Assembly: GCA_965222225.1 (NCBI GenBank)
Contig: CBDCTK010000002.1
Location: 2,912,001 to 2,976,000 of the forward strand
Source: Candidatus Poribacteria bacterium
GTDB taxonomy: Bacteria; Poribacteria; WGA-4E; JAJDTR01
Reading direction: 5' to 3'
Length of the DNA stretch: 64,000 nt
Shown here: in pieces, positions 4,919-58,044 of the stretch
Position numbering within the stretch: the stretch's first letter is position 1
Layout: each line of letters opens with the position of its first letter
Position numbers and translations under genes: made by a program
The notes under the pieces: model-generated
What the model saw: the letters and a program-made list of their open reading frames with translations, nothing else
Database searches by the model: none
Told to the model about the DNA's origin: nothing

Positions 4919-5013
4919 ATCAACCGACTGATTAGGGAGGGCGATAGTAGATCCCTCAAGCGAGTGGATAGGGAGCGATCAAAGGAATGGATAATGACTG
5001 CGATAGAGTTTCC
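4919..5013 (-). repeat. Triple nested 35-bp micro-element
   Basis: Reverse complement reads GGAAACTCTATCG CAGT CATT ATC CATT CCTT TGAT / CGCT CCCT ATC CACT CGCT TGA / GGGATCTACTATCG CCCT CCCT AAT CAGT CGGT TGAT. Confidence 0.85.
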
Positions 5014-5029
5014 ATACCCAAGTTGCTAC

Positions 5030-5905
5030 TTAGCTCGACTTTGTACATTTGAACGTCATAACGGACAGCGTCAATTAGGCGTTGAAGAAGAACGAGGGAG
5101 ATTTTGATGGCCTGGCTTATTTAGTTGACCATTGAAGAATTCCCCAGCGGTTTCTGATACCATACAACCTGTCGCCCCGCCGGGGATTCGGTGTGGGGTG
5201 ATTCGCTGTTGCTATACACCTATCGCCTCTCTGGGGCTTACAAAGGCCTCTTGGATCTCTATCGCGCGCGCTAACCGCTTGCCTGATTCTATTCGGTCAT
5301 TTGATCCGTACAAGAAGCGGTGGGCATTGCCCACCCTACAAATGTACAAAGTCGAACTTAGAACCTGTTTGAATAATTGGTGGCAAAGCCATTTTTGGTC
5401 ATTTGTAGAAAGTTTTTTCATGTTTTCATTGTGGTCTGCTACATACCTATGGGATTGCTATCGCACTCACAATTCGTTCGTTTGATCCCCGCTGGGGGTT
5501 AGGTGCACGGGGTTTTGGTGTTTCTATACACCTTCATGAATCTCTATCGCATTCGCTATTCGCTCCCTTGATCCCACTCTGGGGCTTTTAGAGGCTGGTG
5601 CGCAGGGGATCTCTATCGCAGTCATTATCCATTCCTTTGATCGCATCCTACAAGAGATTGCCTTGATTGGCAGTGTTTCTAGTCATTGCAACTAAGAATT
5701 ATACATTTAGGATTTGCGCTGTTCGGTTTAGAGTGGCGCATTTTATTGCGCGTATTTTGTCGGAGCGAGCGTTACTCGCGACGGGGAATCGCGACCAGGA
5801 GATCGCTCCTACAAAGGCGTTTTCGGGTAGAATGAAACGTCGGAAGTTCTTTTTTTTGTACGCGATTTCTTTTGGATTTCCGCTCAACCCAACCTACGGG
5901 CTGAC
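5030..5905. repeat. Intergenic mosaic of MITE fragments, GTAG-REPs and at least four 35-bp elements
   Basis: 5030-5180 resembles 49533-49675; 5487-5655 resembles 736-870; 5680-5812 resembles 1103-1208. Micro-elements at 5253, 5451, 5538 and 5606. Confidence 0.8.
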
Positions 5906-5912
5906 CACTGTT

Positions 5913-8900
5913 TTAGAACCGTTGCTCCAGCTTCAAATCGACCCCATACTTCCCATGCTCACTGCGCTCCCCTGTAACCGAGAGCCCACGCTTAATCTGA
6001 TATTCCACTTCGATACGCGGCTCCCCGTGAATTTTCAAGGTTGAGGAATAAGAAATGAGAAGACGATCGAAAATTTCTTTGGAAAGAAGGACTCGCGGTT
6101 TTCCGATGTCGGTGGGGTCATGGTCCCACACCACTTCGTGCATGCCGATGAGTTGCGCCAATCGGTTTTGGAGATACTGTTGTGACGGGCGGACGATCAA
6201 GGGCACGGACGCGCCGAGGGGTGACCTTTCACGTGCGGCGTCGCCGGTTGCCAGAATGAAAAGAATTTGCATCTGGCTCAAATTGTACTCTTCGCTGGCG
6301 CCGCGGTACAACACATCCGCGTAAAATTGGGAATGATGCCTCTGCTCCTCCTGCTTGAGGTAACCGCTGAAATGCGCGCGGATTTCCACGTCCCGTGTGT
6401 GATCGCTGCCGTCGGTCGAGATAACCTGAACCCGCTCGATTGGGTCTAAGGTTTTGGCATTAATCTCATAGCGGGGATTAAATTCATAGGGGTTGGTGTT
6501 CTCGACAAACGAACCCTCCTCAATTGTAAACCGATAAATAATGCCGTTAAGCGAGAACTCGCTCGTTGGCAGCAAATTCACTCGCCCGATGAACGACGGT
6601 TTCTGTATCCGCCCGGAAAGTTTTCCGTCTATCGACACCTCAATATCAAGCTTGCCCAAATTGGATATTACCCGGAAATCGTTCGGGGCATGCACGTCCA
6701 AATCGAATCTCAGGTCCCTCATGACGGGGTAATCGGACCAGACTTCAAGGTGAATTTTGGCTGCTTGATCGAACCACTCATTAACGAGATCCTGCCAATG
6801 TCGTTCGTAAGTACCTTCTAATATGCGAACTGAGCCCTGAATCGGCGGCAAGCCTTCAACGGAGTCGGCGGAATTGGCAATCATCAGATTCCCGCTTTCG
6901 CCGCCCCCGACTGCTCCTTTCATGAATAAGTTCACTTCGCCGCATGTGATGCGGTAGAGTCCGTAGTCTTCAAAGGTGGAACCCCCTTCCAGCGTGGCCG
7001 TGAGATCGAGGTATCCCACGCGGTGCCAGTTGGAGGTACCGTAACCGTCCGCTCGGTAAGCCCCTCCGTTCAAAACCCCTTCCCAGTGCCGTATCTGAAA
7101 TCCTTCATTCGTAAAATCCACGGTAACGTCGGTATTCTTGACGTTGATATTTGCATCTGGTAGATCAAATGCCAGGTCGGCGAAGTTGGCGACGCCTTTG
7201 AGTCGAGGCGCGTCAATCTCCCCTCCAATGGTGACATTAACGCTTCCGGAGCCTTCGGCGAACCCCACCTGCTTCTGGATAAGGGGTAGAAATTCCAAAT
7301 CTTCAATGAATACATCCAATCTCCCTTCGATGGTGTTGGCTTGACCGGGAAGGTTCGAGGTTGGCAGATTCGCATGCAGCCTGTCGAGAGACAAGTCGAG
7401 AGGAATCGATCCGGAGAAGTCCGCACGATTGGATCCGATAACAAAACGAGCCGGTTCTTCGGTATGCAGCTTTCCATTCCGGTAAGCAATCCTACCGACG
7501 CACTCGTCTACACGGGCGCGGTTAATTGATAGATTGAAGGTGTCCCACCGGCAAGTGATTTCGGGGTTTTCGCCCGTGCCGCGCACGTGCAACTCTGAAT
7601 TGAGGCGCCCGTCAACGGCATACCCGTCGGGAAGAAAATCGGAGACAAAGCCAAGATTCAGGTTGCTCGTACGCATGTCGAGAACGTAGTGACCCGTGTA
7701 CGGCGCTTCGTCATCTGCTATTACCGCTTCCTTGCCGGAGACCGACCACTGACCGTTCTCCACTACCAACGTGAAACGCTCCTTCTCACCGATGCCAACA
7801 CGTTGGTCCTGTAAGATGAATCCATCGGCAAGATTAAGCTGCCCGGCGGCTAAATGACACTCGAGTGGGTTGAGGTTTCGGACTTCATAGTCAAGAGCGT
7901 TGATGAAAAGTTCTTCAACCTTTAGCCCGCCCGCCGCATAGCTGGCAAGGTTATGCGGAGTTAACGGCAAAATAATCTTGGGAAGCCACGGCGCATCGCC
8001 CGCCGTGACAAACCGCTCTATCGGGAGGCTTAAATGTCCTTGCGCGGTCACATGTCCGGTCAGATTGGCCGCCATCTTCGCCGGCAGAACGTTTCGGGCG
8101 AAGTCGGAGAGTTGCGCCTGTTGGGCATGAAAACTCCGAACTTCAACGGTTCTGGGGAGGAGTCCGTTCATATCGCAATAAACGTTCAGCGCATACTTGC
8201 CTTCGCCGATTTCAAAGCGAAACTCCGGTACGCGGAGCTCATCCTGTTCCACTCGCAGGCTTAGCCGTGCGTCCGAAATCGGTGTATCAAAGTTGGTGAA
8301 TTTGACCATCCCACCTTGGAGGGATGCCGTGCCGTATAAATGCGGCGCGGCGGTTGTGCCGCGTATCTTGAGGTTTATATCGGCTATCCCGCTGGTGGTT
8401 TCGAGTTGTGGCTGAAACCGGGAGAGAAAACTGAGATCGGCTTCTTGACTGCGTATTTCGAGATTAACGGGCTGGTCGAGGAATCGGTCTTTCAAGTCGT
8501 GCGGTTGGAGTCGCAGATCAATCGGTATGGTGCCCTGTATTCTCAAATGGTTTCCATAACCGCTCAATTGGGTCTGCTTAATCTCGAATACACGCTCGCG
8601 ATATTCCACCTGTCCGGTATCCGTGAACTCCAGGAAATGAGACGTGAGTTGATCGCCGACGCTGCCGTGCGCCTCCCACTCTGCATCAATGACGGGATTA
8701 GCGATATTCCCGCCTACATGAGCCACGCCGGTCAAACTCGCTTCAACCCCGACGGTGCTGTTGAACAGCGGCACCGTCATCCCGGGCAACAGGGCGCCGA
8801 ACGGAAAGCCCGTGAGTTCAAAATCAAACTCCAAATCACCATCCAAGTTGATCCAGCCGCGGGTGTCAGCCCATTTGGCGATGTTCGGGGATGGGCGATT

Positions 8901-11900
8901 GCCGGATTGATTGGCGACTACCGAATCCTCGTTTTCCTCTGCTTCGTTGCTCTCCATACTGCTAGGCGACCCAATTTGGAACGAGTTTATCCGGAACGTG
9001 CCATCGGCTAATTCGGCGCGAATCGGTTCGACGGTTAGCATGTCGCGGTTGTTAAAATCTACGTGTAAATTGTCAAGCGTCAGTTGCGCCGAAATTCGAT
9101 CAAGGCTGTAGCCGTCCCCGTCAAGTTCGAGCCGCGAATCGACTATCGCTCGGGTAATCTTGTCGGAGAACAGATACTCGGAGATTTCGTGACTGCCGAT
9201 CTTGTTGACGAAGTGCCTCGCGAAATCGGTTAGATTGATGCCTTTTCCATCTAGCTGAAGTTGAAAAGAGGGATCAAGCGACCGAATAGGGAGCGCGATA
9301 GTGATCCCCTCAAGCGACGATTCTCCCTCCTCCCTTTCATTGGAATCGCCCTCCGCGTACGACAGAAAGAGATCGATGAGTGTGGTTTGCGTCTTTGTTC
9401 GAGGCAGCTGCCAATTCGCCTTCGCTTGATAGCGCCCCTCTCCTATCTGCCATGCGGCGGTATCTGCGGTAACTGTCAGCAGCTTGTCGGATGTCCCGTC
9501 TCCGCCAACGACTCGCAGATCAAGGTTTATGTTTTCAAGCGGCTGAGGGTAATCGAGAACGTGCACTTTGGCGTCGGTTACGCCGATTGATGCGTCAACC
9601 CTCGGGTCGCTGAACGTTCCGGTGAGATGTGCGTCGAGGTTTAGCTGTCCCTCCGTAGACAGCTTAATCGTAGGTTGCCAATCGTGGATTGCCTCGAAGA
9701 GCTGCTCTAGATTCATGGAACCCAAATCAAAATCCACGATGTATGTTCGGAGATCGACGGTTGAGGATTGAAGGCTATCGAGATCCACGGCGGCAGTGGC
9801 TTCGGCTTCCACCGGCACGCCCGTCAGGAGAAAATTGAAGGGTTCGACTGTCAGCGTTTGGTCGGCATAGGCAACCTTGCCCGACGCCTCGCTTACGACG
9901 ATCGGAACGGGGGCGTTTTCAACGCGGAGTTCGGGAATCGCCCACTCAAGCGTGAGTTCGGGGTTTGCGAGGCTTCCGGCGCCGATGAGCTTGTAGCTGG
10001 CGCTTCCGGTTAGGGTTGCGGGGAGGTCCAACACGCCGCATAAGGGTTCAAGCCGGAAGTCTCGGGATTCGGCGACAAAATCAATCGACTGATCGTCTAG
10101 CGTCAAGCAGCAAGTCACGAACGGGGTGTCAACGGTTTTCCCTTCTAAATTGGCGAGCGAGAAGGAATCAACTCTCCAGATGTTGTCGATAAAACCGAAC
10201 CTGATTGGCGCCGCATTTGTCAACCGCCTGCCGTTGACTTCGAGTGCGAGGGAAGAGATCGACGTATCAAGCGTGAATTGTGTCAAATCTAGCAGTGTGC
10301 CGCTGAGTTGGAATGTGCCGTTAGCCGTCGCCGGAATCTCTTTTAAGGCATTGTGAAATATGCCTAGTATGGGACCGATGTTTATCCCGTTGCTCCGCAT
10401 GAAAAGTTGGTAGGGGTTGCCGAGGGTCGATTCTATGATGCCGCGTATCTGGCTGCTGCCGTCAAAGCCGATGCCTTCGAATCGGAGCGCGTTCTCGGTG
10501 AACACGCCGCTGATTCGAATCTCGGGGGAATTACGATTGCCATCACCTTCAGGGATTATGGTGTGATTGTCGTAGGTGATGTCGGAGAAATCGAAATTGA
10601 CATCAACTCGCGGATTGGCGGCATTGCCTTCACCGGTCGCGTGCACGAGGAGGTCGGCGTCCAACAGAAAATCCGGTTCCGGTATAGCGCGGGCAATCGC
10701 AAGTTCTTTCAATCGCATCGGATCGCTCTGAAACTGGAGTTGATAGTCAAGCTCCGGCGTGATTTGGAAATTGATGACGCCGCGTTGTTCCCGCGCGAAC
10801 ACCTCAAAGTCGGACACGTGCACGGTGTAATCCTCTATGACTAGGGGAAGGATTAGGGGGTCGAGCGCCAAATCCCAGGCTTTCGCATCCGCGACGTTGA
10901 GCCTGCCGCGCCCGTCAATGCCGTTTAACGTCCCGTCAAGCGCCAGATTGCCGGTGACAACACCCTCGACGGGGTACTCGGCGCCTGCCAATAGCCGCAC
11001 ATAATCCGAAATCTGAAAGGGATGGGCACGGACGCGGAACTCGACGGGGATATCGCCCTCGACTTGAGCGACTCCGTCCAGGGTCAATAGGCTCTCCCCT
11101 TTGGATAGGCGGACGGGTTGGAGGGTTACGCTGCCGTTCCGATAATGGAAGTTCGCTGTCAACACGCCGATGGGCACATCGAAAAGACTGGCTTCGGGGA
11201 TTTCCAGAAATCCGGTTAGCGGAACATCCGATGTAATCTTTCCGCGGAGTGTCGCGTCGCCGCCGAGATTGGGGGCGCGTATGATTTCCATCAATTTGCC
11301 GGTGTCGATGCGCCGTATCTCCAGATCGAGATTCAACGCCCCTTCTAGACCGGCTGCGCCGTTGACTCGGATGTTGGCGTCGTCGAGATTGGCGGCAACT
11401 TGGAGTTGGTTCCCCGCTATCTCAAAACTGGCTTCCGAAACGCGGATGCGAACATCGTTCATCGTGGCTTGGTCGATTTTCAACCCGCCCGTAAGCGTTA
11501 AGGAATCAGCGATCGCCGATTTCGGATTCTCTTCGCTTTGCGGCGACACCTCTTGAGTTGTCGGCAGCGAGCCGCTGATGTGGAGGCGGCTGTCGAGGAT
11601 TCCAGTCATGGTGAGAAAGTCTTCGGGAAGGTCGATGAACACTGGGAGGATTTCCTCGACGTTGGCGCCCTCAAGCTCTGCCCAGCCATCGTAGGCAATC
11701 GGCGATTCTGCGTTCTCTTCGGATGAAGGTGTCTGCGCCGTGGTATCCCGAGGCGATTGCTCGGAAATGGACATTAGAGAAAAAAGACTTCTTCCCAGGC
11801 CCCCGAAACGCGCCTCCAAACCCGCGGTGAGTTTGCCGGACGCGAGCGTCCCATTCACGTCGGTCAACTTAAGCGCGTTCCGGTTGAATTCGGCATTGAC

Positions 11901-13094
11901 GTTGAGTTCCTCCAACTGGAAGTTGTTGAAGGCTGCCGCGCGCAACTCGAGGTGCAGGTTGCCGCTGATATCCGATGATGTCCCCTTCGCTTCGAGGTTT
12001 ATCCGCGCATTCCCGGCGACCTCGAATCGGTCGGGGAGGAGATTTTGGAAGTCACCCAAATCAATATCCAAATCGATTCTGGTCTCCAGATAGCGCGACG
12101 CCTCCGTGAAATCGCGGACTTTTCCGGCAATCGCCAAGCGCGACTTCCCCATCGCAAGTTGCATCTCTTTCAACTCACCCTCGTCCGCGAGCAGCTTGAA
12201 CCGGGTTTTGAACTCATGAATCTTCGTCTTTACGCCATTTAGCTCGAAACTCCCATCTTGAATAGCCAAGTTTCCGGTGTGCTCCCACCGATCAAGCGGT
12301 CCTTCGACCCGACTTTGAATGCCGCTGACAGCAATCTTCAGATTACGTTCGCCGTCTTCATAGTTCACGTACCCATCGACAAACTCGATATTGGAGATTC
12401 CGAATTGGAACGGCAGGCTTGAATCCGATGTGGAATCGGTTTGCGGCGCAAGTGAAGTTAGGTTGAGCCGCCCATCCTCCCGCATACGAAGGTTGAACTC
12501 GGGTCGCATGAAACGCAGCTTGGTGATGTGGAATTTGCCGCCTATCAATCGCCAAAGATCGTATTTTAACACAATCTCTTCCGCGGAGATGAACGGGTGA
12601 TGTCGAAGAAGTCTATCCGAGATTTCAAACCGCTTGAGGCTCAAGCCCGTGAAGATGTCCCCGGAAAGATGGCCGATGCTGACAATGTATTTGAAGACAT
12701 TGAATAATCGGCGATCATCAAATCGCCAGTTTCCCGTCTCGTTGCCATCGCGCCTTATGGCGTATCGCCATTTGTGGTTTTTGTCAGAGACGACCCACTC
12801 TCCAAGTTTGTCAAGGAAGGCAACGGAGACGGCAGGGGAGAATTCGACGCCGTAGTCGGCAAATGCGGATTGCAACACCTCCGGAAGCCGCCCATTATCC
12901 AACGTTACGGCATGCAGATCCGCATACTCTACCGTAAATAGAAGAGGCTGTTCGAATTGCTGACCCAGCCGCGTTTCGAGGGTTGCGCGAATTTTTTCAA
13001 GGAGATAGGCGGAGCGCAGAAACACGACAGCGCCGATGATGAGGCAGATAGGAATTGTTGTGAGTAGTGCTATGACTATGTTTCGTCGGCTCAT
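5913..13094 (-). CDS. tamB: Translocation and assembly module TamB/AsmA-like protein (DUF490 C-terminus)
   Basis: About 2390 aa with an N-terminal TM anchor (MSRRNIVIALL..., likely start 13094) and long beta-taco repeats. The C-terminus '...IEVEYQIKRGLSVTGERSEHGKYGVDLKLEQRF' is typical of TamB. Confidence 0.85.
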   Translation of the reverse strand: MSRRNIVIALLTTIPICLIIGAVVFLRSAYLLEKIRATLETRLGQQFEQPLLFTVEYADLHAVTLDNGRLPEVLQSAFADYGVEFSPAVSVAFLDKLGEWVVSDKNHKWRYAIRRDGNETGNWRFDDRRLFNVFKYIVSIGHLSGDIFTGLSLKRFEISDRLLRHHPFISAEEIVLKYDLWRLIGGKFHITKLRFMRPEFNLRMREDGRLNLTSLAPQTDSTSDSSLPFQFGISNIEFVDGYVNYEDGERNLKIAVSGIQSRVEGPLDRWEHTGNLAIQDGSFELNGVKTKIHEFKTRFKLLADEGELKEMQLAMGKSRLAIAGKVRDFTEASRYLETRIDLDIDLGDFQNLLPDRFEVAGNARINLEAKGTSSDISGNLHLELRAAAFNNFQLEELNVNAEFNRNALKLTDVNGTLASGKLTAGLEARFGGLGRSLFSLMSISEQSPRDTTAQTPSSEENAESPIAYDGWAELEGANVEEILPVFIDLPEDFLTMTGILDSRLHISGSLPTTQEVSPQSEENPKSAIADSLTLTGGLKIDQATMNDVRIRVSEASFEIAGNQLQVAANLDDANIRVNGAAGLEGALNLDLEIRRIDTGKLMEIIRAPNLGGDATLRGKITSDVPLTGFLEIPEASLFDVPIGVLTANFHYRNGSVTLQPVRLSKGESLLTLDGVAQVEGDIPVEFRVRAHPFQISDYVRLLAGAEYPVEGVVTGNLALDGTLNGIDGRGRLNVADAKAWDLALDPLILPLVIEDYTVHVSDFEVFAREQRGVINFQITPELDYQLQFQSDPMRLKELAIARAIPEPDFLLDADLLVHATGEGNAANPRVDVNFDFSDITYDNHTIIPEGDGNRNSPEIRISGVFTENALRFEGIGFDGSSQIRGIIESTLGNPYQLFMRSNGINIGPILGIFHNALKEIPATANGTFQLSGTLLDLTQFTLDTSISSLALEVNGRRLTNAAPIRFGFIDNIWRVDSFSLANLEGKTVDTPFVTCCLTLDDQSIDFVAESRDFRLEPLCGVLDLPATLTGSASYKLIGAGSLANPELTLEWAIPELRVENAPVPIVVSEASGKVAYADQTLTVEPFNFLLTGVPVEAEATAAVDLDSLQSSTVDLRTYIVDFDLGSMNLEQLFEAIHDWQPTIKLSTEGQLNLDAHLTGTFSDPRVDASIGVTDAKVHVLDYPQPLENINLDLRVVGGDGTSDKLLTVTADTAAWQIGEGRYQAKANWQLPRTKTQTTLIDLFLSYAEGDSNEREEGESSLEGITIALPIRSLDPSFQLQLDGKGINLTDFARHFVNKIGSHEISEYLFSDKITRAIVDSRLELDGDGYSLDRISAQLTLDNLHVDFNNRDMLTVEPIRAELADGTFRINSFQIGSPSSMESNEAEENEDSVVANQSGNRPSPNIAKWADTRGWINLDGDLEFDFELTGFPFGALLPGMTVPLFNSTVGVEASLTGVAHVGGNIANPVIDAEWEAHGSVGDQLTSHFLEFTDTGQVEYRERVFEIKQTQLSGYGNHLRIQGTIPIDLRLQPHDLKDRFLDQPVNLEIRSQEADLSFLSRFQPQLETTSGIADINLKIRGTTAAPHLYGTASLQGGMVKFTNFDTPISDARLSLRVEQDELRVPEFRFEIGEGKYALNVYCDMNGLLPRTVEVRSFHAQQAQLSDFARNVLPAKMAANLTGHVTAQGHLSLPIERFVTAGDAPWLPKIILPLTPHNLASYAAGGLKVEELFINALDYEVRNLNPLECHLAAGQLNLADGFILQDQRVGIGEKERFTLVVENGQWSVSGKEAVIADDEAPYTGHYVLDMRTSNLNLGFVSDFLPDGYAVDGRLNSELHVRGTGENPEITCRWDTFNLSINRARVDECVGRIAYRNGKLHTEEPARFVIGSNRADFSGSIPLDLSLDRLHANLPTSNLPGQANTIEGRLDVFIEDLEFLPLIQKQVGFAEGSGSVNVTIGGEIDAPRLKGVANFADLAFDLPDANINVKNTDVTVDFTNEGFQIRHWEGVLNGGAYRADGYGTSNWHRVGYLDLTATLEGGSTFEDYGLYRITCGEVNLFMKGAVGGGESGNLMIANSADSVEGLPPIQGSVRILEGTYERHWQDLVNEWFDQAAKIHLEVWSDYPVMRDLRFDLDVHAPNDFRVISNLGKLDIEVSIDGKLSGRIQKPSFIGRVNLLPTSEFSLNGIIYRFTIEEGSFVENTNPYEFNPRYEINAKTLDPIERVQVISTDGSDHTRDVEIRAHFSGYLKQEEQRHHSQFYADVLYRGASEEYNLSQMQILFILATGDAARERSPLGASVPLIVRPSQQYLQNRLAQLIGMHEVVWDHDPTDIGKPRVLLSKEIFDRLLISYSSTLKIHGEPRIEVEYQIKRGLSVTGERSEHGKYGVDLKLEQRF
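9273..9318 (-). repeat. 35-bp micro-element plus a 3' remnant, inserted in-frame in tamB
   Basis: Reverse complement GTCGCTTGA GGGGATCACTATCG CGCT CCCT ATT CGGT CGCT TGAT, encoding SLEGITIALPIRSLD. Confidence 0.85.
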
Positions 13095-13156
13095 TGGTGT
13101 AAAGGAATGTCCGGTGACCTGTGACCAACAAAAACGGGTGTCTCTATTTTCCCCGT

Positions 13157-13999
13157 TTACTGGCGACAACCACCGACGAGTTCTTGATGCGCTTGATCTA
13201 CCATCTGCTCAACGAGGTTAAGCGCGAAGGATTGCGCTCTATGCCCATCCTCGTTAATCCAAAGGAGATATTCGATGTTGCCTGCGGGACCCCGGATAGG
13301 CGAGTGCGTAATTCCCAACACGGACATCTCCATCTCCCGGACAAATTGAATGAGGGTTCGGATAACGTTGAGGTGAATCTGTGGATCGCGAACGACGCCC
13401 CCCTTATTGACGTATTCTTTGCCTGCCTCGAATTGCGGCTTAATCAAGAGGATGAGGTCGCTCCCCGCTTCGACGCATCCCTTCACCGCGGGTAACATCG
13501 TGCGCAGCGAGATAAACGAAACGTCAACAACGCAAATCTCTACCGGGAGATCGAATAGCGTTCGATCTATCGCGCGGGCGTTGGTACGTTCGATAACTCC
13601 CACCCTCGAATCTTGGCGCAGTTTCCACGCCAATTGACCGTAGCCCACATCCACGGCATAGACGTGCCGCGCGCCGTTTTGGAGAAGGCAGTCCGTGAAT
13701 CCGCCGGTAGACGCCCCGACATCGAGCGCGGTTTTCCCCAAAACGTCCACATCGAAAACATGGAGCGCTTTCTCCAGCTTCAGCCCGCCGCGGCTCACAT
13801 ATCGGAGCGGTTGTTTTATCTCAATGCTCGCGTCTACCGGGACGCTCTGTCCCGGCTTGGAATGCAATTCACCTTCGACGAGGACTTCACCCGCAAGAAT
13901 AAGCCGCTTCGCTTGTTCTCGGCTATCGACAAGCTCCCGATCTGCGAGGAGTGTATCAAGCCGTTGTTTGTTAGGATTGTGGATCGTCGTAGGTTGCAT
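13157..13999 (-). CDS. tlyA: TlyA family rRNA 2'-O-methyltransferase
   Basis: S4 domain RLD..L....SRE.A; YVSRGGLKL; LDVGASTGGFTD; DVSFISL; LIKPQFE; SPIRG..GNIEY. Confidence 0.95.
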   Translation of the reverse strand: MQPTTIHNPNKQRLDTLLADRELVDSREQAKRLILAGEVLVEGELHSKPGQSVPVDASIEIKQPLRYVSRGGLKLEKALHVFDVDVLGKTALDVGASTGGFTDCLLQNGARHVYAVDVGYGQLAWKLRQDSRVGVIERTNARAIDRTLFDLPVEICVVDVSFISLRTMLPAVKGCVEAGSDLILLIKPQFEAGKEYVNKGGVVRDPQIHLNVIRTLIQFVREMEMSVLGITHSPIRGPAGNIEYLLWINEDGHRAQSFALNLVEQMVDQAHQELVGGCRQ

Positions 14000-16950: not shown

Positions 16951-17155
16951 TAGACTCCATGACAGGTTGAGACAACCGTCAAATTATACCATTTCTCTAA
17001 AATTCAAGTGCATTGATTGCGTGGGTCAAGTAAAGAAACTTATTTGGATCGGAGTAAGAGGCCTTGTCTCCACGCAAAGTGGGCGGGGGAAGGGGATCTC
17101 TATCGCATTCGCTATTCGCTCATTTGATCGTCGCTGGTGCGTTCAAAGGCTGGTG

Positions 17156-17727
17156 CGCAGTGCGCACCCTACAAGATGGCAATTCGGAATTGTACTTTTG
17201 TACAAAGTCGAGCTTAGGGCCTGTTTGAATAATAGGTGGCAAAGCAATTTCGGTCACTTTGGGCGCGGCTTTTTCATGCTTTTGTGGTCGCCTGCTATAC
17301 ACCTGTCAGGATTTCTATCGTATTCGCTATTCGCTCGCTTGATCCCACGCTGGGGCTTTCAAAGGCTGGTAGGATCTCTATCGCGCTCATTATTCATTCG
17401 CTTGATCGCAGTGCGCACCCTACAAGATGGCAATTCGGAATTGTACTTTTGTACAAAGTCGAGCTTAGGGCCTGTTTGAATAATAGGTGGCAAAGCAATT
17501 TCGGTCACTTTGGGCGCGGCTTTTTCATGCTTTTGTGGTCGCCTGCTATACACCTGTCAGGATTTCTATCGTATTCGCTATTCGCTCGCTTGATCCCACG
17601 CTGGGGCTTTCAAAGGCTGGTAGGATCTCTATCGCGCTCATTATTCATTCGCTTGATCGCAGTGCGCACCCTACAAGATGGCAATTTGGAATTGTACTTT
17701 CGTACAAAGTCAAGCTTAGGGCCTGTT
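17156..17727 (+). repeat. Tandem repeat with a 251-bp unit (2.3 copies), built from REP + MITE end + two 35-bp elements
   Basis: Units start at 17156, 17407 and 17658; units 1 and 2 look identical. A further 35-bp element lies at 17093-17128. Confidence 0.9.
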
Positions 17728-19515: not shown

Positions 19516-19612
19516 TGTGTTTTATTTTCATTAATATTTACATATATTGATTGCATGTTACGCGATTTGACAATTGAAGATTGCTGCGACAAACCATTTG
19601 CCTGTAGGAGCG

Positions 19613-19676
19613 ATCAAAGGAATGAATAATGACTGCGATAGAGAACTCTATCGCGTTCCCTATTCGGTCACTTGAT
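19613..19676. repeat. Two divergent 35-bp micro-elements fused at their 5' ends; the right one overlaps the ymdB stop
   Basis: ATCAAAGGAATGAATAATGACTG-CGATAGAG-AA-CTCTATCG-CGTTCCCTATTCGGTCACTTGAT. Confidence 0.85.
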
Positions 19677-20460
19677 CCTCCAAAGGCACCCGAATCCGCT
19701 CAATGGACAGCGCCTTCCCCGTATCATCATCTACCTCAATCACGACGCCGCAAAGTATAACGTCCCTCTTCGCCACATTATGCCGTATCGGAAGCATGGT
19801 GGTGAAATGGTAGAGCACATCCTCTTTTCGGGTGCCGATGACGGAATCATGGGGGCCTGTCATTCCAACGTCGGTGATGTATGCCGTACCGCCCGGGAGA
19901 ACCCGCTCATCCGCGGTTTGAACGTGCGTATGCGTCCCAACCACCGCCGCCACCCGCCCGTCGGCGTGCCAGCCCATGGCTATCTTTTCGGCGGTTGCCT
20001 CCGCGTGGAAATCCAAAAACAGACAAGCAACCTTCTCCCGAATCTCGGGCAAAATCTCGTCAAGCGTTTGAAAGGGATTGTCGAACCCTCCCATATAGAC
20101 TTGACCGGCGATATTTATCACGCCTAGCCGGTCTCCGCAGGAATTTGAAACCACTGTCCAGCCGCAGCCGGGAGCGCTTTTCGGATAATTTGCGGGCCGC
20201 ACGAGATTCGACTGATTGTCTATGAACGTCAGAATTTCACGCTGCGCCCAAACATGGTTGCCGGTTGTAATCGCATGAACACCCGCCCCCGATAGCTCAT
20301 TAACAATCGCTTTTGTTAACCCTTTGCCTCCCGCGGCGTTCTCGCCGTTCACCACAGCGAAGCTGAAACGCCCGTAACGCTCCGACAGTAGTGGGAGCAG
20401 CGTCAAAACTGCTTTTCGCCCCGGCTGTCCGACAATATCTCCAACGAACAATATCTTCAT
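19660..20460 (-). CDS. ymdB: YmdB/TIGR00282 metallophosphoesterase
   Basis: MKILFVGDIVG.PGR, NGENAAGGKG, TTGNH, RPANYP, DFHAEATAEK, GTHTHVQTAD, TDVGMTG. Confidence 0.95.
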   Translation of the reverse strand: MKILFVGDIVGQPGRKAVLTLLPLLSERYGRFSFAVVNGENAAGGKGLTKAIVNELSGAGVHAITTGNHVWAQREILTFIDNQSNLVRPANYPKSAPGCGWTVVSNSCGDRLGVINIAGQVYMGGFDNPFQTLDEILPEIREKVACLFLDFHAEATAEKIAMGWHADGRVAAVVGTHTHVQTADERVLPGGTAYITDVGMTGPHDSVIGTRKEDVLYHFTTMLPIRHNVAKRDVILCGVVIEVDDDTGKALSIERIRVPLEDQVTE

Positions 20461-20513: not shown

Positions 20514-20578
20514 GAAATCTCTATCGCACAGGATTTTCTATCGGGAGTTCTATCGCCTTCCTAATCCAGTCAGTTGAT
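20514..20578 (+). repeat. 35-bp micro-element preceded by two stacked 5' ends
   Basis: GAAATCTCTATCGCAC / AGGATTTTCTATC / GGGAGTTCTATCG CCTT CCTA ATC CAGT CAGT TGAT. Confidence 0.8.
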
Positions 20579-20586
20579 CGGTTTCG

Positions 20587-23339: not shown

Positions 23340-23533
23340 TTGTCTGAATCGCAGGATTTGCTATCGCGCTCATTATTCATTCGCTTGATCGTCTTTGATT
23401 CAACCGGCGTCAGTTGCCTAATTATGTGTATGCGTTGGCTTCTGGATTCCCAAACTGTCGTGGATTAAAGATCACCCGCTTTTAATCTGCGCAATCTGTG
23501 TAATCCGAACATCTTGGCGCGCTAGCGATTCAA
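23340..23533. mobile_element. MITE-like element (TCTGAATCGC...GCGATTCA ends) carrying a 35-bp element
   Basis: Homologous along its length to 29517-29720; contains 9-mer AATCTGCGC/AATCTGTGT repeats. Confidence 0.7.
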
Positions 23534-26438: not shown

Positions 26439-26581
26439 GAAACTCTATCGATCAACTGAGTGAATAACGAAGGATTAAGCGAATGAATAATGAGCGCGAT
26501 AGTGAATCCTGATAGAAAGTCCTACTCCCTATTCAGTCGCTTGAGGGATTTACTATCGCCTTCGCTATCCGCTCAGTTGAT
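26439..26581. repeat. Four nested 35-bp micro-elements in both orientations
   Basis: The outer forward copy is split by a reverse copy, which is itself split by another reverse copy. A fourth copy is inserted at the outer TGA|T and ends 1 bp from the stop codon at 26583. Confidence 0.85.
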
Positions 26582-26582
26582 C

Positions 26583-29516: not shown

Positions 29517-29720
29517 TTGTCTGAATCGCGGATTTGCTATCGCACTCACTATCCGTTCGCTTGATTTGATTAAATTCGACCAATCATCTTCGATGCAACC
29601 GGCGCCATTTGCCTAATTATGCGTATGCGTTGACTTCAGGATTCCCAAACTGTTGTGGATTAACGGATTGCCCGCTTTTATCTGCGCAATCTGTGTAATC
29701 CGTTTAATCAGCGATTCAGA
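29517..29720. mobile_element. MITE-like element with TCTGAATCGC/GCGATTCAGA TIRs
   Basis: 10-bp inverted ends; second copy at 23340; a third left end at 41702; contains a 35-bp element at 29529-29565. Confidence 0.75.
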
Positions 29721-36035: not shown

Positions 36036-36070
36036 GGATCTCTATCGCGCTCCCTATTCGGTCACTTGAT
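36036..36070 (+). repeat. 35-bp micro-element inserted in a REP hairpin
   Basis: GGCTGGTG[GGATCTCTATCGCGCTCCCTATTCGGTCACTTGAT]CGCAGTGCGCACCCTAC; the empty site GGCTGGTGCGCAGTGCGCACCCTAC is at 14213 and 17148. Confidence 0.9.
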
Positions 36071-36118
36071 CGCAGTGCGCACCCTACAAATATACTCGAA
36101 TATTGCAGAGGAAATCAT

Positions 36119-36769: not shown

Positions 36770-38014
36770 ATGAGAGAAACGGATTTTGTGTTGGACGGAA
36801 CCCTACGCTCGGATGGAGCATCAATTCGCGACGTAGGGTCGAATCATTTCAGATTGACGCTGGGGCGTGTACCCCAACCCACGATGGCTACGGCGCAGAT
36901 TCCGCCGCATCTCGGAAAGCATTATCCGGGGCGGCAGGAGGGTTGGGCAAACTGGGTGCGATTCGAGATTGCCCGCAACCCCAAGGGGAACGCACTTCGG
37001 CTTGATGTGGAATTCGACGCGCCCGAAGAGTGGGGCACATTTCGCTCGCAAAAGGAGGGCGGCGTGCCGTATCCGTTCACAAACTACGATCCGTGCTGGT
37101 CTTACGACGGGGAGGAGTGGAGGTATATCTCGTGGGAGGAGGATTTTGTTCCGGGACGCGCGGGGACGCTCATCTTTCCACCGTTCGAGCAGGATCGGGT
37201 GCTGGTTTGCACGCAGTTACCGATGACCGTTGAGGATGCGGAGGCGATGCTTGCGGAGTGGCAAGAACACCCGCATGTGGAGGTGCATATTCTCGGGGAG
37301 TCGATCGGGGGGCGGAAACTTCATCGCGTGACCATCACCGATCCGCAGGGAAACGTGCCGCCTTCACGCCGCTGGGTGCATCATGCCGCCAATCAGCATC
37401 CGGGCGAAGGGGTGTCGCAGTGGTACATCGCGGGAATGGTAAAGTGGTTCTTGAGCGATGAGGCGGCGGAGGCACGCTCTTGGACGATTGGGCATTTCAC
37501 GCTCATGATGAATCCCGACGGCGTCGACCATGGGTGGTGCCGCGTCAACGCGCAGGGGATTGATAGTAACCGGAATTTTCGGGTGGAGGGGTCTGATCAG
37601 GCGCTCCAGCCACATGAGGCGTTCATCTTCCAGCGAGATTTTGAGTCGCTCCTACACTCCGATGCTCCGGTGACGACGAGTTGGGCGATGCATTCGTCGC
37701 CATCGGCAAAACTGTCACCGATGTTGGTTGGTCGGGGACCGGAGTTGCGGGGCGTGTTGGGGCCTGACGAGGATTTCGGGGCGTTGTTGAAGGAGCGTGA
37801 TCCGAACAACTTGATTAACGACTATCGTGAGCATCATAGGGGAGTGACGCCGGAGTGCTTTTGGGACGGGGGACCGCATCATGCGTGGGGTATCACAACG
37901 TTTCTGGTTGAGGGAGGCGGAAAGGGTCTTAACAAAGCGCAGGCTATCGAGGCTGGGGGTATTCTTATGCGGGCGCTTACGGCGTATTATGCTGGGGATC
38001 AACTGAGCGGATAG
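36770..38014 (+). CDS. M14 zinc carboxypeptidase family protein
   Basis: LGESIGGR, ANQHPGE, MMNPDG, GIDSNRNF, downstream H and E ligands. Confidence 0.8.
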   Translation: MRETDFVLDGTLRSDGASIRDVGSNHFRLTLGRVPQPTMATAQIPPHLGKHYPGRQEGWANWVRFEIARNPKGNALRLDVEFDAPEEWGTFRSQKEGGVPYPFTNYDPCWSYDGEEWRYISWEEDFVPGRAGTLIFPPFEQDRVLVCTQLPMTVEDAEAMLAEWQEHPHVEVHILGESIGGRKLHRVTITDPQGNVPPSRRWVHHAANQHPGEGVSQWYIAGMVKWFLSDEAAEARSWTIGHFTLMMNPDGVDHGWCRVNAQGIDSNRNFRVEGSDQALQPHEAFIFQRDFESLLHSDAPVTTSWAMHSSPSAKLSPMLVGRGPELRGVLGPDEDFGALLKERDPNNLINDYREHHRGVTPECFWDGGPHHAWGITTFLVEGGGKGLNKAQAIEAGGILMRALTAYYAGDQLSG

Positions 38015-38106
38015 CGAAGACGATAGAGATGGTGGGCGGTGCCCACCCTACAGAGGTCGCGACCTGGAGAGGGATTTCTATCGCACTCCTTATTCAGTCG
38101 CTTGAT
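37998..38106. repeat. Two 35-bp micro-elements: a reverse copy over the M14 stop and a forward copy in a REP
   Basis: 37998-38030 reverse complement ATCTCTATCG TCTT CGCT ATC CGCT CAGT TGAT; 38071-38106 splits GGAGA|TCGCTCCTAC. Confidence 0.85.
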
Positions 38107-38181
38107 CGCTCCTACATAGGAAGAAAGGGTATCGGGGATTCGGTGACTGCCGATCCCGCCCTGCACAGAGGAGGTTTGGGA

Positions 38182-39522: not shown

Positions 39523-39753
39523 TGGTGGCGAAGCCATTTTTAGTGATTTGAGATACTACACACCTTTCGCATCGCTCGTGCTTTCAAAGGCTGATCGGGA
39601 GTGCCCACCCTACAGGGTCGCGATCGGGAGATTGTTCCTACAGACAATCAAAGCGGACGGAAAAAAGCTATCGCACGGGATCTCTATCGCACTCCTTGTT
39701 CAGTCGCCTGATCGCTACTACAATCGAAACCCGAGTCCGCGTGCACGACGCTG

Positions 39754-41711: not shown

Positions 41712-41838
41712 GGGATCTCTATCGGGATTTACTATCGCCTTCGCTATCCACTCAGTTGATCGGATTAAGGGATTTCTATGGAATCTCTATCGCAGTCATT
41801 ATCCATTCCTTTGATCGCTCATTATCCATTCGCTTGAT
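41712..41838 (+). repeat. Stack of full and partial 35-bp micro-elements inside a MITE end
   Basis: Full copies at 41724-41760 and 41780-41815, with extra 5' and 3' ends. Confidence 0.85.
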
Positions 41839-49415: not shown

Positions 49416-49532
49416 GGCAATCAATGTGTAGGAACGCTCAGGGAACCCACGGCTGACGTTCTTTCATTGGCACACGACCGTATTTGTCGGACACAGAACG
49501 GGAATTTATGAGCCACAAAGCTTTTTGTTGCC

Positions 49533-49762
49533 AAGTTCGACTTTGTACATTTAAGCGGGATAACGGACGGTGTCAATTAAGCGTTGAAGAAAAGCGGGGG
49601 AGATTTTAACTAGCTGGTCTTTTTGGTTGAACATTGAAAAAGTCGTCAGCGGTTTCTGATATTGTGCAACTTGTCAGGATCTCTATCGCCCTCACTGTGG
49701 GATCTTCTATCGCCTTCGTTATCCACTCAGTTGATCGTTCGGTTGATCCCGCGCTGGGGCTT
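49533..49762. repeat. MITE-like repeat with two nested 35-bp elements
   Basis: Homologous to 5030-5185; the copy at 49699-49735 is nested in the copy at 49677-49747. Confidence 0.75.
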
Positions 49763-53463: not shown

Positions 53464-53831
53464 CAGTGGCCAGTGGCCCGTGGCTAGTGACCAGTAAAGG
53501 AGAAAAATTTGCAAATTATGAACAAGTTAAAAAGTTATCAAGACTTGGAAGTTTGGAAGAAATCAATCGAGTTGGCAGAGATGGTCTATCGAATCTCTGC
53601 GGAGTTTCCGCCGGAGGATCAAACGAGCGAATAGCGAGTGCGATAGAGATCTCTAACGGAGACATTTCTGATTCTGGCGCAGCGGTTGGGGATCGCCAAA
53701 GCCGAACAAATCAATCCCTTACTAGCCCTGGCGGGGGACATTGGACGGATGCTCAACGGTCTCAAACGCTCGCTGCGATCCAGAACTTGACCGACGCGGA
53801 CTTCCCGCTGGCACTGACCACTGGCGACTGG
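53464..53831 (+). mobile_element. Heptamer-repeat-flanked four-helix-bundle cassette inserted in-frame in mod
   Basis: Left end AGTGGCC AGTGGCC CGTGGCT AGTGACC AGT; right end GCTGGC ACTGACC ACTGGCG ACT; lies between FGEPDI and QVTVHGVDVF. Confidence 0.8.
53518..53790 (+). pseudogene. Four helix bundle protein (23S rRNA IVP/bAvd-like), internally deleted, in the +1 frame of mod
   Basis: MNKLKSYQDLEVWKKSIELAEMVYRISAEFPPE-[35-bp element, stops]-TETFLILAQRLGIAKAEQINPLLALAGDIGRMLNGLKRSLRSRT*. Confidence 0.85.
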
Positions 53832-54187: not shown

Positions 54188-54223
54188 GGGATCTCTATCG
54201 CCCTCGCTGTTCGCTCGGTTGAT
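54188..54223 (+). repeat. 35-bp micro-element copy
   Basis: GGGATCTCTATCG CCCT CGCT GTT CGCT CGGT TGAT. Confidence 0.9.
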
Positions 54224-54265
54224 CGGTTTCTTCCACTAACCACTGACCACTAGGCACTGCATTTC

Positions 54266-56595: not shown

Positions 56596-56624
56596 TTGAC
56601 TTTTGTCGCAAGCGCCGCTATGAT
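56596..56624 (+). promoter_or_regulatory. Sigma70-like promoter
   Basis: TTGACT-17 bp-TATGAT upstream of the PhyH gene. Confidence 0.55.
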
Positions 56625-56764
56625 GTTTACCAATACGCTAGCGCACGTTGACAACAGTAGTAGGGTGGCGCCGCCCGCCATTGCTTGTTCGGCACCATAA
56701 ATCCCTGCATCTTAACTCGCCACTCTCCACTAACCACTGCTCTTACCATGCAAGGGGTTCGTGT

Positions 56765-57628
56765 ATGAAAATCATTGATTCGGATATGCAGAAACAGTTT
56801 ATGAATGACGGTTTTTACGTCTTCAGAAATATGCTTGAGCCAGAACTGATCGATACGTTGAGGGGAATCACGGATGATGTGCTCGCGCAGCAGGAGGAGG
56901 CGCATTTCGAGCAGCAACGCGCGCCGGGCAGCATGGTGCTCATCGATTGGGAGATGGCGTACCGGCATGATGTGCTAGCTGAACTGATTGCTCACCCGAA
57001 AATGCTGAAGGGGCTGTCTGAACTGGGATTCGCGGAGCCGAAGTTTGGGCATGGGCGCATCATCAGCAAGCCGCCGCACAGCCCGCGATTGTTTTGGCAC
57101 GAGGACGGCAGGTTCTGGTACGATCCGGTCAGTTATACGCCGCAGCCCATCCAGTGTTTTCTGATGTACTATCTCGTGGACACCGCGCCGGAGAACGGGT
57201 GCTTGCGGGTGATTCCGGGATCGCATCTGAAGCGCCACGCGCTGCATGACCAAGTTCCAGTGCGGCATGCCGAAAAATTGAAAACGTATGCGGATCCGCA
57301 TCACATCGCTTTCCAACATGCGGAGGGAGAGATTGATGTGCCGGTGAAGGCGGGGGATGCGGTGATGGGCTACGGCACGCTGTTTCACTCCGCCCACGCC
57401 AACCAGACGAATCAACGCCGGACGGGGCTTACGATGTGGTATTATCCCGATTTCGTCGACCTGCCCGAGCACACCCAAGCTACAGTGGCGTCCTTGGAGA
57501 CCGACACCCAAGTCACGAGATGCTCGCCGGGGCAGAGGCAGCGTCTTATGGAGCCACTCAGGATTGTGTACGAAGGCGATGCCGAATCCATCCCGCAGCA
57601 GTGGACGCCGGGAGAGGATTTGAGATAG
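56765..57628 (+). CDS. Phytanoyl-CoA dioxygenase (PhyH) family protein
   Basis: F..DGFYV, KPP....FWHED, ENGCLRVIPGSH, GD.......LFHSAHANQT..RR. Confidence 0.9.
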   Translation: MKIIDSDMQKQFMNDGFYVFRNMLEPELIDTLRGITDDVLAQQEEAHFEQQRAPGSMVLIDWEMAYRHDVLAELIAHPKMLKGLSELGFAEPKFGHGRIISKPPHSPRLFWHEDGRFWYDPVSYTPQPIQCFLMYYLVDTAPENGCLRVIPGSHLKRHALHDQVPVRHAEKLKTYADPHHIAFQHAEGEIDVPVKAGDAVMGYGTLFHSAHANQTNQRRTGLTMWYYPDFVDLPEHTQATVASLETDTQVTRCSPGQRQRLMEPLRIVYEGDAESIPQQWTPGEDLR

Positions 57629-57801
57629 CGAAGTGGATGCCGCAGAACATGAGCACACTACGCCCGGTTATAGCTGCAGAAACCGAATCGACGCACGCCG
57701 CACGAGTTCCGGCACTCCCTTTGGGCACCTCTTGACCTAACTCCGTACTTTGAGCATAGCGTTCAATATTCATTTTATGTGACAACAAATATTTCTGACC
57801 C

Positions 57802-57830
57802 TTGAAAACTTAACATATGTAAGGTATAAT
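57802..57830 (+). promoter_or_regulatory. Near-consensus sigma70 promoter facing a repeat cluster
   Basis: TTGAAA-17 bp-TATAAT. Confidence 0.55.
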
Positions 57831-57842
57831 TCACCGGTATAT

Positions 57843-58044
57843 GTAGGGTGGGCACCGCCCACCATTCTTTCTACAGGATCAACTGCGATCAACCGAACGA
57901 TCAACTGAGTTGATAACGAAGGCGATAATAAATCCTACCTCTGTAGGAGGGGCATCTTGCCCCGACTAATCTTTAGCTGTGCGATTGGCATCTTTGACAG
58001 CGAAGGCGATAGAAGCTCCCTATAGTGTTCCCATAGAAATCCCC
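57843..58044. repeat. GTAG-REPs plus stacked reverse 35-bp micro-elements
   Basis: GTAGGGTGGGCACCGCCCACC; full reverse copy at 57900-57935 with extra 3' ends at 57878 and 57888; stacked 5' ends at 58005-58044. Confidence 0.75.

Follow-up and report, generated by a model that had tools for sequence, protein, structure and literature searches.

The stretch analysed here (the window) comprises 64,000 nucleotides of a Candidatus Poribacteria genome (assembly GCA_965222225.1, contig CBDCTK010000002.1, positions 2,912,001 to 2,976,000), which is 5.70 Mb in size, lies on two contigs (one of them C2) and is referred to below as G000. Dispersed through the window is a micro-element of about 38 nt, present in 32 copies with at most two mismatches to a common scaffold; 100 dinucleotide shuffles of the window contained no scaffold match. 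An earlier note on this DNA had described recurring, barcode-like subtypes of the element and had attributed them to a finite set of master templates. On the strand given in that note (the written strand) the scaffold is CTATCGC NN TC NN T ANN C NN TC NN T TGATC, and the GA-rich complement is called here the structured strand. The eight variable "barcode" positions make up four base pairs that covary, in a hairpin that is short and interrupted, and the element is probably a miniature mobile hairpin repeat of Candidatus Poribacteria, resembling the repetitive extragenic palindromes (REPs) and recognised by its shape, whichever enzyme moves it. The copies in the window, with one composite repeat and with mismatches counted against the scaffold, are as follows.

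794..823, + strand: copy, core CAGT CGCT ATT CGCT CCCT; scaffold match, 0 mismatches
1438..1467, + strand: copy, core CCCT CCCT AAT CAGT CGGC, empty head before and half unit after; 1 mismatch
1559..1588, + strand: copy, core CACT CATT AGC CATT CGCT; 2 mismatches
4918..4947, - strand: copy, core CCCT CCCT AAT CAGT CGGT; scaffold match
4977..5006, - strand: copy, core CAGT CATT ATC CATT CCTT; scaffold match
5357..5653, + strand: composite repeat of about 250-300 bp with three copies (5458, 5544, 5613); look-alikes in sister genomes
5458..5487, + strand: copy, core CACT CACA ATT CGTT CGTT; 1 mismatch
5544..5573, + strand: copy, core CATT CGCT ATT CGCT CCCT; scaffold match
5613..5642, + strand: copy, core CAGT CATT ATC CATT CCTT; scaffold match
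9272..9301, - strand: copy, core CGCT CCCT ATT CGGT CGCT, in frame within a TamB-like open reading frame (ORF); scaffold match
17100..17129, + strand: copy, core CATT CGCT ATT CGCT CATT; scaffold match
17315..17344, + strand: copy, core TATT CGCT ATT CGCT CGCT; 1 mismatch
17378..17407, + strand: copy, core CGCT CATT ATT CATT CGCT, in the left arm of a GTAG-type REP; scaffold match
17566..17595, + strand: copy identical to 17315, 251-bp local duplication; scaffold match
17629..17658, + strand: copy identical to 17378, 251-bp local duplication; scaffold match
19612..19641, - strand: copy, core CAGT CATT ATT CATT CCTT, the entire intergenic cluster missing in the relative G005; scaffold match
19648..19677, + strand: copy, core CGTT CCCT ATT CGGT CACT; scaffold match
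20550..20579, + strand: copy, core CCTT CCTA ATC CAGT CAGT; scaffold match
23361..23390, + strand: copy, core CGCT CATT ATT CATT CGCT; scaffold match
26473..26502, - strand: copy, core CGCT CATT ATT CATT CGCT; 1 mismatch
26553..26582, + strand: copy, core CCTT CGCT ATC CGCT CAGT, long head; scaffold match
29537..29566, + strand: copy, core CACT CACT ATC CGTT CGCT; 1 mismatch
36042..36071, + strand: copy, core CGCT CCCT ATT CGGT CACT, within a GTAG-type REP; scaffold match
37997..38026, - strand: copy, core TCTT CGCT ATC CGCT CAGT; 1 mismatch
38078..38107, + strand: copy, core CACT CCTT ATT CAGT CGCT; scaffold match
39684..39713, + strand: copy, core CACT CCTT GTT CAGT CGCC, empty head before; 2 mismatches
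41732..41761, + strand: copy, core CCTT CGCT ATC CACT CAGT, long head; scaffold match
41787..41816, + strand: copy, core CAGT CATT ATC CATT CCTT; scaffold match
49707..49736, + strand: copy, core CCTT CGTT ATC CACT CAGT; scaffold match
53617..53646, - strand: copy, core CACT CGCT ATT CGCT CGTT; scaffold match
54195..54224, + strand: copy, core CCCT CGCT GTT CGCT CGGT; 1 mismatch
57899..57928, - strand: copy, core CCTT CGTT ATC AACT CAGT; 2 mismatches
60275..60304, - strand: copy, core CGCT CCTT ATC CAGT CGCT; scaffold match

With up to three mismatches allowed over the 20 fixed positions, the whole genome contains 1,085 copies (559 exact, 307 with one mismatch, 140 with two and 79 with three), and the reversed genome none. 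Each consists, over some 34–38 nt, of a head GGGATYT, then CTATCG, a 19-nt core and a right end TTGAT(C), which is TTGAT followed by C in 979 of the 1,085; a minimal unit of 25 nt also exists. The earlier note was right that the diversity of these copies is not random decay: variation is restricted to the eight strongly variable stem positions and a semi-variable centre of three loop bases, the 20 scaffold positions being near-invariant. Each quartet follows the pattern C-V-B-T, in that its first variable base is T in just 6–12 copies of the 1,085 and its second is A in 8–12; read on the structured strand, A never stands immediately 5' of the conserved G of a G.A opposition. No match in the window reached the Rfam gathering threshold, and literature searches returned no paper linking Poribacteria with repeats of the REP type, with MITEs (miniature inverted-repeat transposable elements) or with small dispersed repeats (SDRs). 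The element represents an abundant and previously undescribed repeat family of Candidatus Poribacteria.

The pairing of the variable positions is evident from their mutual information, which is 1.14, 0.95, 0.75 and 0.42 bits at positions 11-19, 8-22, 7-23 and 12-18 respectively (0-based, in the 30-mer), and which never exceeds 0.21 bits for core positions that are not partners. Three conserved outer pairs are added to these four. Among 4,340 pair cells on the written strand, 3,618 are Watson-Crick, 470 are A.C or C.A, 72 are G.T or T.G and 180 are other combinations. Since A.C on the written strand is G.U (or G.T) on the complement, it is the complement that obeys the pairing rules, and its form is GATCAA nn GA nn G RAT A nn GA nn G CGATAG. 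Between the 2-bp helices the conserved T.C and C.T oppositions become tandem G.A on this strand. When 30 of the 32 window copies were aligned, the two local duplicates being omitted, 118 of 120 stem cells (98.3%) paired on the structured strand and 108 of 120 on the written strand; shuffling of partners gave 58.0 ± 3.4% pairing, with none of 500 shuffles reaching the observed value, and sliding the partner column by 1–3 positions lowered pairing to 21–56%. Compensatory partners can be read directly from the window, where CGCT goes with CGCT and CGTT with CACT. The degenerate letters of the earlier note, in which (C/T) is accompanied by (A/G), had captured exactly such compensatory partners, with their pairing overlooked.

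Wobble pairs are common at the two helix ends only, and beside a G/C neighbour, and they are tolerated on one strand. Copies one step away from any of the 25 commonest cores include 117 with a wobble of the structured-strand kind and 11 with the other kind, and the asymmetry recurs (151 versus 30) in G005, the closest of the relatives found (nucleotide identity in genes about 90%). A replication-strand mutation bias would, by simple arithmetic, be diluted to no more than about 2.3:1 by the 70:30 mix of orientations described below. It cannot therefore yield a wobble asymmetry of 6–10:1, which accordingly reflects selection on a single-stranded form; a single-stranded intermediate is likely to be involved.

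Energy calculations with RNA parameters, on 866 copies with at most one scaffold mismatch, put the covarying structure at -4.49 kcal/mol for the structured strand and +1.10 for the written one; when stem partners were swapped among these copies the value rose to +1.21 kcal/mol. The helix lay within the minimum-energy fold of 753 of the 866 real copies, compared with 232 of the 866 after swapping. With DNA parameters neither strand was stable (+0.82 kcal/mol structured, +2.27 written), which favours RNA over single-stranded DNA. DNA energy tables may undervalue tandem G.A oppositions. As far as such models can say, the hairpin is weak, its RNA form plausible and its DNA form uncertain. These energies, the restriction of wobble to one strand, and the size (just 25–36 nt) and self-nesting of the units all speak for an RNA-mediated route, in which the GA-rich strand would be made as a small structured RNA from source copies and then copied or inserted into DNA. 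We nevertheless consider such a route unlikely, for reasons which emerge from the orientation of the copies and from the scarcity of reverse transcriptases (RTs) in this genome, discussed below.

The five subtypes singled out earlier do lie at the loci given for them, apart from shifts of a few bases that depend on the strand and on inclusion of the head: CAGT-CATT-AT(C/T)-CATT-CCTT at 4977(-), 5613(+), 19612(-) and 41787(+); CCTT-CG(C/T)T-ATC-..-CAGT at 26553, 41732, 49707 and 57899(-), with an additional copy at 37997(-); CCCT-CCCT-AAT-CAGT-CGG(C/T) at 1438 and 4918(-); CGCT-CATT-ATT-CATT-CGCT at 17378, 17629, 23361 and 26473(-); and CG(C/T)T-CCCT-ATT-CGGT-C(A/G)CT at 9272(-), 19648 and 36042. 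Much of this recurrence follows from pairing. The chance that two copies share all variable positions rises from 0.00017 for independent positions to 0.0030 if outer stem, inner stem and loop assort freely. The observed probability of an identical core, 0.0081 over the 1,085 copies, is 2.7 times the latter figure. It falls to 0.0047, or 1.9 times, among the 671 flank-unique copies, defined as those with no partner of 80% identity over 40 nt; this rule replaced clustering by any shared 12-mer, which was too lenient and placed 1,033 copies in one cluster. Pairing alone thus shrinks the sequence space about 17-fold, and bursts, hitch-hiking and local spread add a further 2–3-fold. In the window, 13 of 496 pairs of copies are identical in stem plus loop, where free assortment predicts 1.49 and 11 independent positions predict 0.086. 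The probability that two copies are the same variant is 0.038 at less than 300 nt, 0.025 at 2–10 kb and 0.006–0.008 beyond 50 kb, so that the window excess is explained by the local clustering of identical variants. The count is inflated as well by the tandem duplication of 251-bp period (17315-17407 and 17566-17658), each half of which bears two copies and from which at least two of the 13 identical pairs stem.

The idea that finite master templates (such as a donor array or a small-RNA family) or programmed diversification of the kind due to diversity-generating retroelements (DGRs) lie behind the subtypes draws on this residual over-representation and on several associations. Outer and inner stems are significantly associated (G 1724 vs 876 ± 28, and 1063 vs 721 ± 25 in the flank-unique set). 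The linkage of head to core that the earlier note had suspected is also real, the head that is 1 nt longer occurring with the CCTT...CAGT outer stem in 52 copies where 22.8 are expected. The core CAGT CATT ... CATT CCTT has 68 copies against 12.9 expected, other effects being modest in size; CCTT CGCT ATT CGCT CAGT, for example, has 15 copies with about 15 expected. Arrays of the kind to be expected of a master locus were found too: at C2:1578264-1578700 ten copies lie in tandem, five of them at a 38-nt period with differing cores and some at a 25-nt period, and C2:2705093-2708255 holds twenty. But the units of these arrays are in part chimeric or halved, and look like the product of repeated, nested insertion and unequal exchange rather than a master locus.

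Nor does the repertoire behave as a finite donor set would. There are 97 fully paired stem haplotypes, which together cover 889 of the 1,085 copies. In 1.2 Mb of G005 (294 copies) the commonest core of G000 is absent (0/294) and its other top cores number 0–4, while the frequencies of individual states agree closely between the two species (r = 0.96 for the outer stem, 0.95 for the inner stem and 0.99 for the loop). In G012, of the second genus to carry the element, the repertoire is narrower, six cores making up 54 of the first 100 copies listed and the commonest alone 20, which would suit a small set of templates. The spectrum of change is not the adenine-specific one that had been proposed: the first variable position takes A, C or G, the second C, G or T, and changes are paired. 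No DGR-type RT and no template/variable repeat pair were found. The sole RT-like ORF in the genome (670 aa, G000:C2:4499560-4501572; L230 1061-3073, - strand) scores 26.8 bits, below the Pfam cut-off, adjoins a fragment of a type I restriction R subunit and may be a defence-type RT. The data describe a stationary cloud spread across the permitted stems, with bursts in particular lineages, and master templates or programmed diversification are accordingly highly improbable.

The largest two subtypes, moreover, are for the most part not independent insertions: 33 of 50 and 20 of 23 of their copies share flanks, and so ride in larger composite repeats such as 5357..5653, which has dozens of look-alikes of 73–90% identity in each of five sister genomes. 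Further composites, of 150–300 bp with several modules, lie at 936-1262 and 16984-17130, again with dozens of look-alikes (73–92%) in each of five sister genomes, and it is the composite repeats that carry the two most over-represented cores. It might be supposed from this, and from the finding that just 39 of the 1,085 copies share no flank 12-mer with another copy, that the element does not move by itself and that its copies are internal modules of larger, MITE-like repeats. Against that, the 671 flank-unique copies have no partner with 80% identical 40-nt flanks; clean differences of 33–36 nt and of 23 nt between species start and stop at the element itself; and the element is found in coding sequence as well as in three or more unrelated host repeats. 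There is consequently very little likelihood that it spreads only as a passenger.

Copies of the element are polymorphic for presence and absence between species. In 400 kb of G005 (90 copies), 37 copies could be placed in G000 by both flanks, and alignments read by eye showed that on the G000 side 23 of these are absent or unalignable, 6 carry an identical or almost identical core and 8 carry another core. One of these eight is the window copy at 20550, where the G005 flanks are about 97% identical but the core differs and a half unit has been added. Strict parsing of BLAST gaps gave three clean events, and the remainder come from a relaxed listing read by eye; the clean length differences are of 33–36 nt, with one of 23 nt in which core plus tail has been joined to an existing CTATCG head. 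That sister species maintain the same module frequencies in spite of near-complete turnover of loci argues that the element is recognised by its shape.

At the right junction TTGAT|C is found in 10 of 12 readable cases, whereas the left junction is often, but only loosely, TG|. These junctions showed neither terminal inverted repeats nor a constant target duplication. In most copies head and tail are not inverted repeats of one another, which sets the element apart from DDE-type MITEs. The element also nests in other repeats. Insertion into the palindromic GTAG REP takes place at GTG|CGCA, in either arm, and the other hosts are a TGTC-GCCCC hairpin, a GGCGGGGCAAGATG hairpin and the micro-element itself, this nesting giving rise to empty heads, half units, head-to-head forms and arrays. 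These hosts belong to three more small repeat families present throughout the genome (for example at window 36072-36090, L013-L016), namely a GTAG-tagged REP with two stem variants, a TGTC-tagged GCCCC-NNN-GGGGC hairpin and the GGCGGGGCAAGATG hairpin. Neighbouring copies within 300 nt form 348 pairs, of which 269 are tandem, 58 head-to-head and 21 tail-to-tail.

The element is overwhelmingly intergenic, 983 of the 1,085 copies (91%) lying outside ORFs of at least 120 aa, which make up 80% of the genome. Convergent, divergent and tandem intergenic regions contain copies in proportion to their length, with no class preferred. About 25 copies genome-wide lie inside ORFs of more than 300 aa, solely in stop-free frames. 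A copy in the window lies in a 72-nt in-frame insertion (24 codons) within the 2418-aa TamB/AsmA-like ORF at 5913..13169, an insertion which is missing from the G005 and G003 orthologues; translated (9230-9360, - strand), this region reads ...GITIALPIRSLD....

Orientation is unrelated to neighbouring transcription: beside co-directional neighbour genes, 305 copies run in the same direction and 345 in the opposite one. It follows instead the replication-type asymmetry of the chromosome. When GC skew is taken from coding DNA only and averaged over both gene directions, 673 of 958 copies have their written strand on the G-rich strand (odds ratio 5.5, p 1e-35), as do 327 of 465 5-kb clusters decided by majority vote (p 5e-18). 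The GTAG REPs of the genome share this polarity: 135 of 179 and 154 of 194 have their GTAG strand on the C-rich strand, as have 47 of 73 and 67 of 91 of those more than 150 nt from any micro-element. Within composites, the GTAG strand of the REP coincides with the micro-element's structured strand. The bias in gene strand (57% versus 54%) is too weak to calibrate the leading strand. This replication-linked skew, shared with GTAG REPs, suggests propagation at replication forks. Copy density ranges from 0 to 68 per 100 kb of the G000 chromosome, with hot spots near 1.5, 1.9, 2.7 and 3.0 Mb, and the sign of the cumulative GC skew switches repeatedly, suggesting numerous chromosomal rearrangements. 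For the RNA-mediated route introduced above, the indifference to transcription and the skew shared with REPs, which move at the DNA level, are both unfavourable, and no RT is linked to the element, the RT-like ORF already described being the only one.

Orientation along the strand asymmetry is a property also of chromosome-architecture motifs, and together with the conserved pairing and the near-equal stem-state frequencies of two species it invites the proposal that the copies are structured sites useful to the host (for example protein-binding sites or a replication-oriented signal), kept by selection and spreading by recombination. Such sites would hardly be expected to turn over as massively as the 37 placed loci do, to lie in frame within ORFs, to be nested in other selfish repeats or to cluster locally as identical variants; and genera of the same order have none of them. 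We regard this proposal as very unlikely.

So far the element has been found abundantly in two genera of Candidatus Poribacteria. When exact-scaffold stretches were sought in one genome per species, the 80 listed of at least 125 all came from Candidatus Poribacteria metagenome-assembled genomes. Across 121 genomes of the phylum, two genera have the exact scaffold in abundance: that of G000 (g1), with 323–862 copies in 8 of 8 genomes, and g4, the other carrier genus, which belongs to another family, with 118–137 copies in 4 of 4. Two further copies lie in g2 and one each in two other genomes, and the remaining 106 searched have none. So patchy an occurrence points to loss elsewhere or to transfer between two lineages of symbionts.

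For the enzyme, the most economical candidate is a Y1 (HUH) transposase of the REP-associated tyrosine transposase (RAYT) type, acting in trans at replication forks, and it is proposed here tentatively, at somewhat below an even chance. There are five Y1_Tnp matches in the genome. The best RAYT of G000 itself (G000:C2:3088913-3089326, L210; 133.9 bits) has a double-headed copy of the micro-element 78 nt downstream, and a second (G000:C2:1545693-1545926, L211) lies in a dense cluster; intact orthologues are present in sister genomes. Of the other g1 genomes, 8 of 9 have RAYTs scoring above the NCBIfam cut-off, as do 4 of 4 in g4. Two of 14 RAYT loci (L218 and L224) are flanked on both sides by inverted micro-elements and others on one side, a count confounded by nesting in the flanking GTAG REPs and TGTC hairpins. 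An intact IS200-like Y1 gene (G000:C2:3080255-3080728; 65.8 bits, above cut-off) was also considered as the cognate enzyme, with one copy 17 nt past its stop codon and inverted copies 108 and 205 nt upstream. It was rejected: its homologues in g6 and g4 are flanked by the TGTC-GCCCC hairpin instead, and the copies beside it are there because the micro-element inserted into that hairpin.

Several observations weigh against a REP-like element moved by such an enzyme. No enzyme is tied to the micro-element. The best RAYT of G000 is interrupted by an in-frame TAG and the second is truncated; G008, with 831 copies (at most one mismatch), has no RAYT at E ≤ 1e-20 in a genome 93% complete; and RAYTs occur also in genera that do not carry the element (g6, 6 of 7; g3, 4 of 10; g9, 1 of 1). 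The different hairpin beside the g6 homologues of the IS200-like gene points the same way, and closeness to Y1 genes may merely reflect nesting in REPs. The micro-element bears no GTAG or CGTC tag, its conserved ends being GGGATYT-CTATCG and TTGATC; GTAG occurs within it only in the complement of a head variant. Its junctions are not uniform, they define no single target and they may include small target changes, and inverted pairs among the 348 neighbours show neither fixed-spacing doublets nor a dominant spacing. To the instability of both strands under DNA parameters must be added that the 50-nt contexts of single copies fold no better than their shuffles (z -0.7 to +1.7). In most bacteria the G-rich strand is the lagging-strand template; if that is so here, the structured strand would appear to lie opposite to the IS608 prediction.

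If the preferred reading of a REP-like hairpin repeat recognised by shape is correct, the active form would be a single strand, presumably the GA-rich complement, folded into a hairpin with three conserved outer pairs and two 2-bp helices of free sequence provided that they pair, with conserved purine-purine mismatches (tandem G.A) between the helices and a GRAUA-type loop. The copying machinery would read the shape and the conserved unpaired bases rather than the letters of the stem. The population could then drift through every paired state of the stem, passing by way of a tolerated G.U or G.T wobble, and the barcodes would be those states. Recurring subtypes would arise from the small number of allowed states together with recent lineage-specific bursts, passive carriage in composite repeats and local spread. 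In its most extreme form, which is distinctly unlikely, the element would be a hairpin replicator of 25–36 nt with free stem letters, in which just the purine mismatches, the loop and the ends are read, spreading via a structured RNA or a lagging-strand-type single-stranded DNA copy integrated at forks. It would then be among the smallest self-spreading elements known and would provide an experiment of nature on a neutral network, in which some 100 stem genotypes coexist at equilibrium frequencies that do not differ between species; and the old proposal of RNA-mediated micro-elements would become testable in a second phylum.

REPs and their doublet form, the REPINs, are mobilised by RAYT (Y1 HUH) transposases (Nunvar 2010, PMC2817692; Bertels & Rainey 2011, PMC3116915; Di Nocera 2013, PMC3733652). 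Like these repeats, the micro-element is a short extragenic hairpin repeat with hundreds of copies and variants round common sequences, it occurs in genomes with RAYT genes and it forms mosaic clusters with other repeats. It is an imperfect palindrome in the 20–40-nt range with a stem-loop, its copies are numerous and mostly extragenic, and its polarity is that of the bona fide GTAG REPs of the same genome. It differs in having, besides ends without a REP tag, an interrupted and unusual stem of two 2-bp helices split by purine mismatches, where the REP stem is G+C-rich and continuous; in the coexistence of about 100 stem sequences; and, unlike REPINs, in its predominantly tandem neighbours (269 of 348 pairs).

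The nearest parallel in size is provided by the SDR4, SDR5 and SDR6 elements of Nostoc punctiforme, of 21–27 nt, reportedly described by Elhai et al. 2008 (Genome Res 18:1484). A strand-specific pairing pattern is said to have led those authors to propose RNA intermediates. The SDR elements are treated further in citing passages of PMC4390886 and PMC13756078. Going by such descriptions, the micro-element shares with them a very small size (25–36 nt versus 21–27 nt), dispersal, nesting in itself and in other repeats, and a hairpin backed by compensatory changes; the comparison is by description, not by sequence. In contrast, its host belongs to Poribacteria rather than to heterocystous cyanobacteria, its orientation follows the replication-type skew, and it shows no link to the highly iterated palindrome HIP1, which has 120 copies in the genome and is not enriched. 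No phycobilisome families were found in the genome either, and a cyanobacterial host is rejected.

Single-strand transposition by the IS200/IS605 family of insertion sequences (ISs), and derivatives associated with palindromes, were reportedly described by Ton-Hoang et al. 2010 (Cell 142:398). The micro-element resembles these in part, in its single informative strand, presumed hairpin recognition, lack of a consistent target duplication, constant right end (TTGAT|C) and orientation coupled to replication asymmetry. Unlike them it has one hairpin without distinct left and right ends and no defined target tetra- or pentanucleotide, and its polarity relative to skew appears opposite to the rule for that family. 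The Rickettsia palindromic elements (RPEs) of Ogata et al. 2000 are said to be 100–150 bp long and mostly genic; the micro-element is like them a palindromic repeat able to lie in frame within an intact protein gene, as in the TamB-like ORF and the other copies in ORFs of more than 300 aa, but 91% of its copies are intergenic.

The apparent barcode is thus ordinary RNA or DNA pairing logic, and a mobile hairpin family that fills nearly the whole space of paired stem states in one genome offers a rare natural system in which to measure mutation-selection balance on a structural neutral network. At a practical level, the repeats break short-read assemblies, can insert in frame into genes and mark fast-changing intergenic regions of sponge-symbiont genomes. 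In public RNA libraries the region is present as contigs which break at the micro-element repeats.

Two other repeated sequences in the window may be mentioned. The segment 31718-32083 (about 365 bp) has at least five matching places in G005 at 97–99% identity, against about 90% for syntenic genes, which from sequence comparison suggests a recently active or exchanged small mobile element. The segment 26530-27440 (about 0.9 kb), with many copies of about 76–88% identity in all five sister genomes searched (G004-G008), represents either an IS or a gene family with multiple copies.

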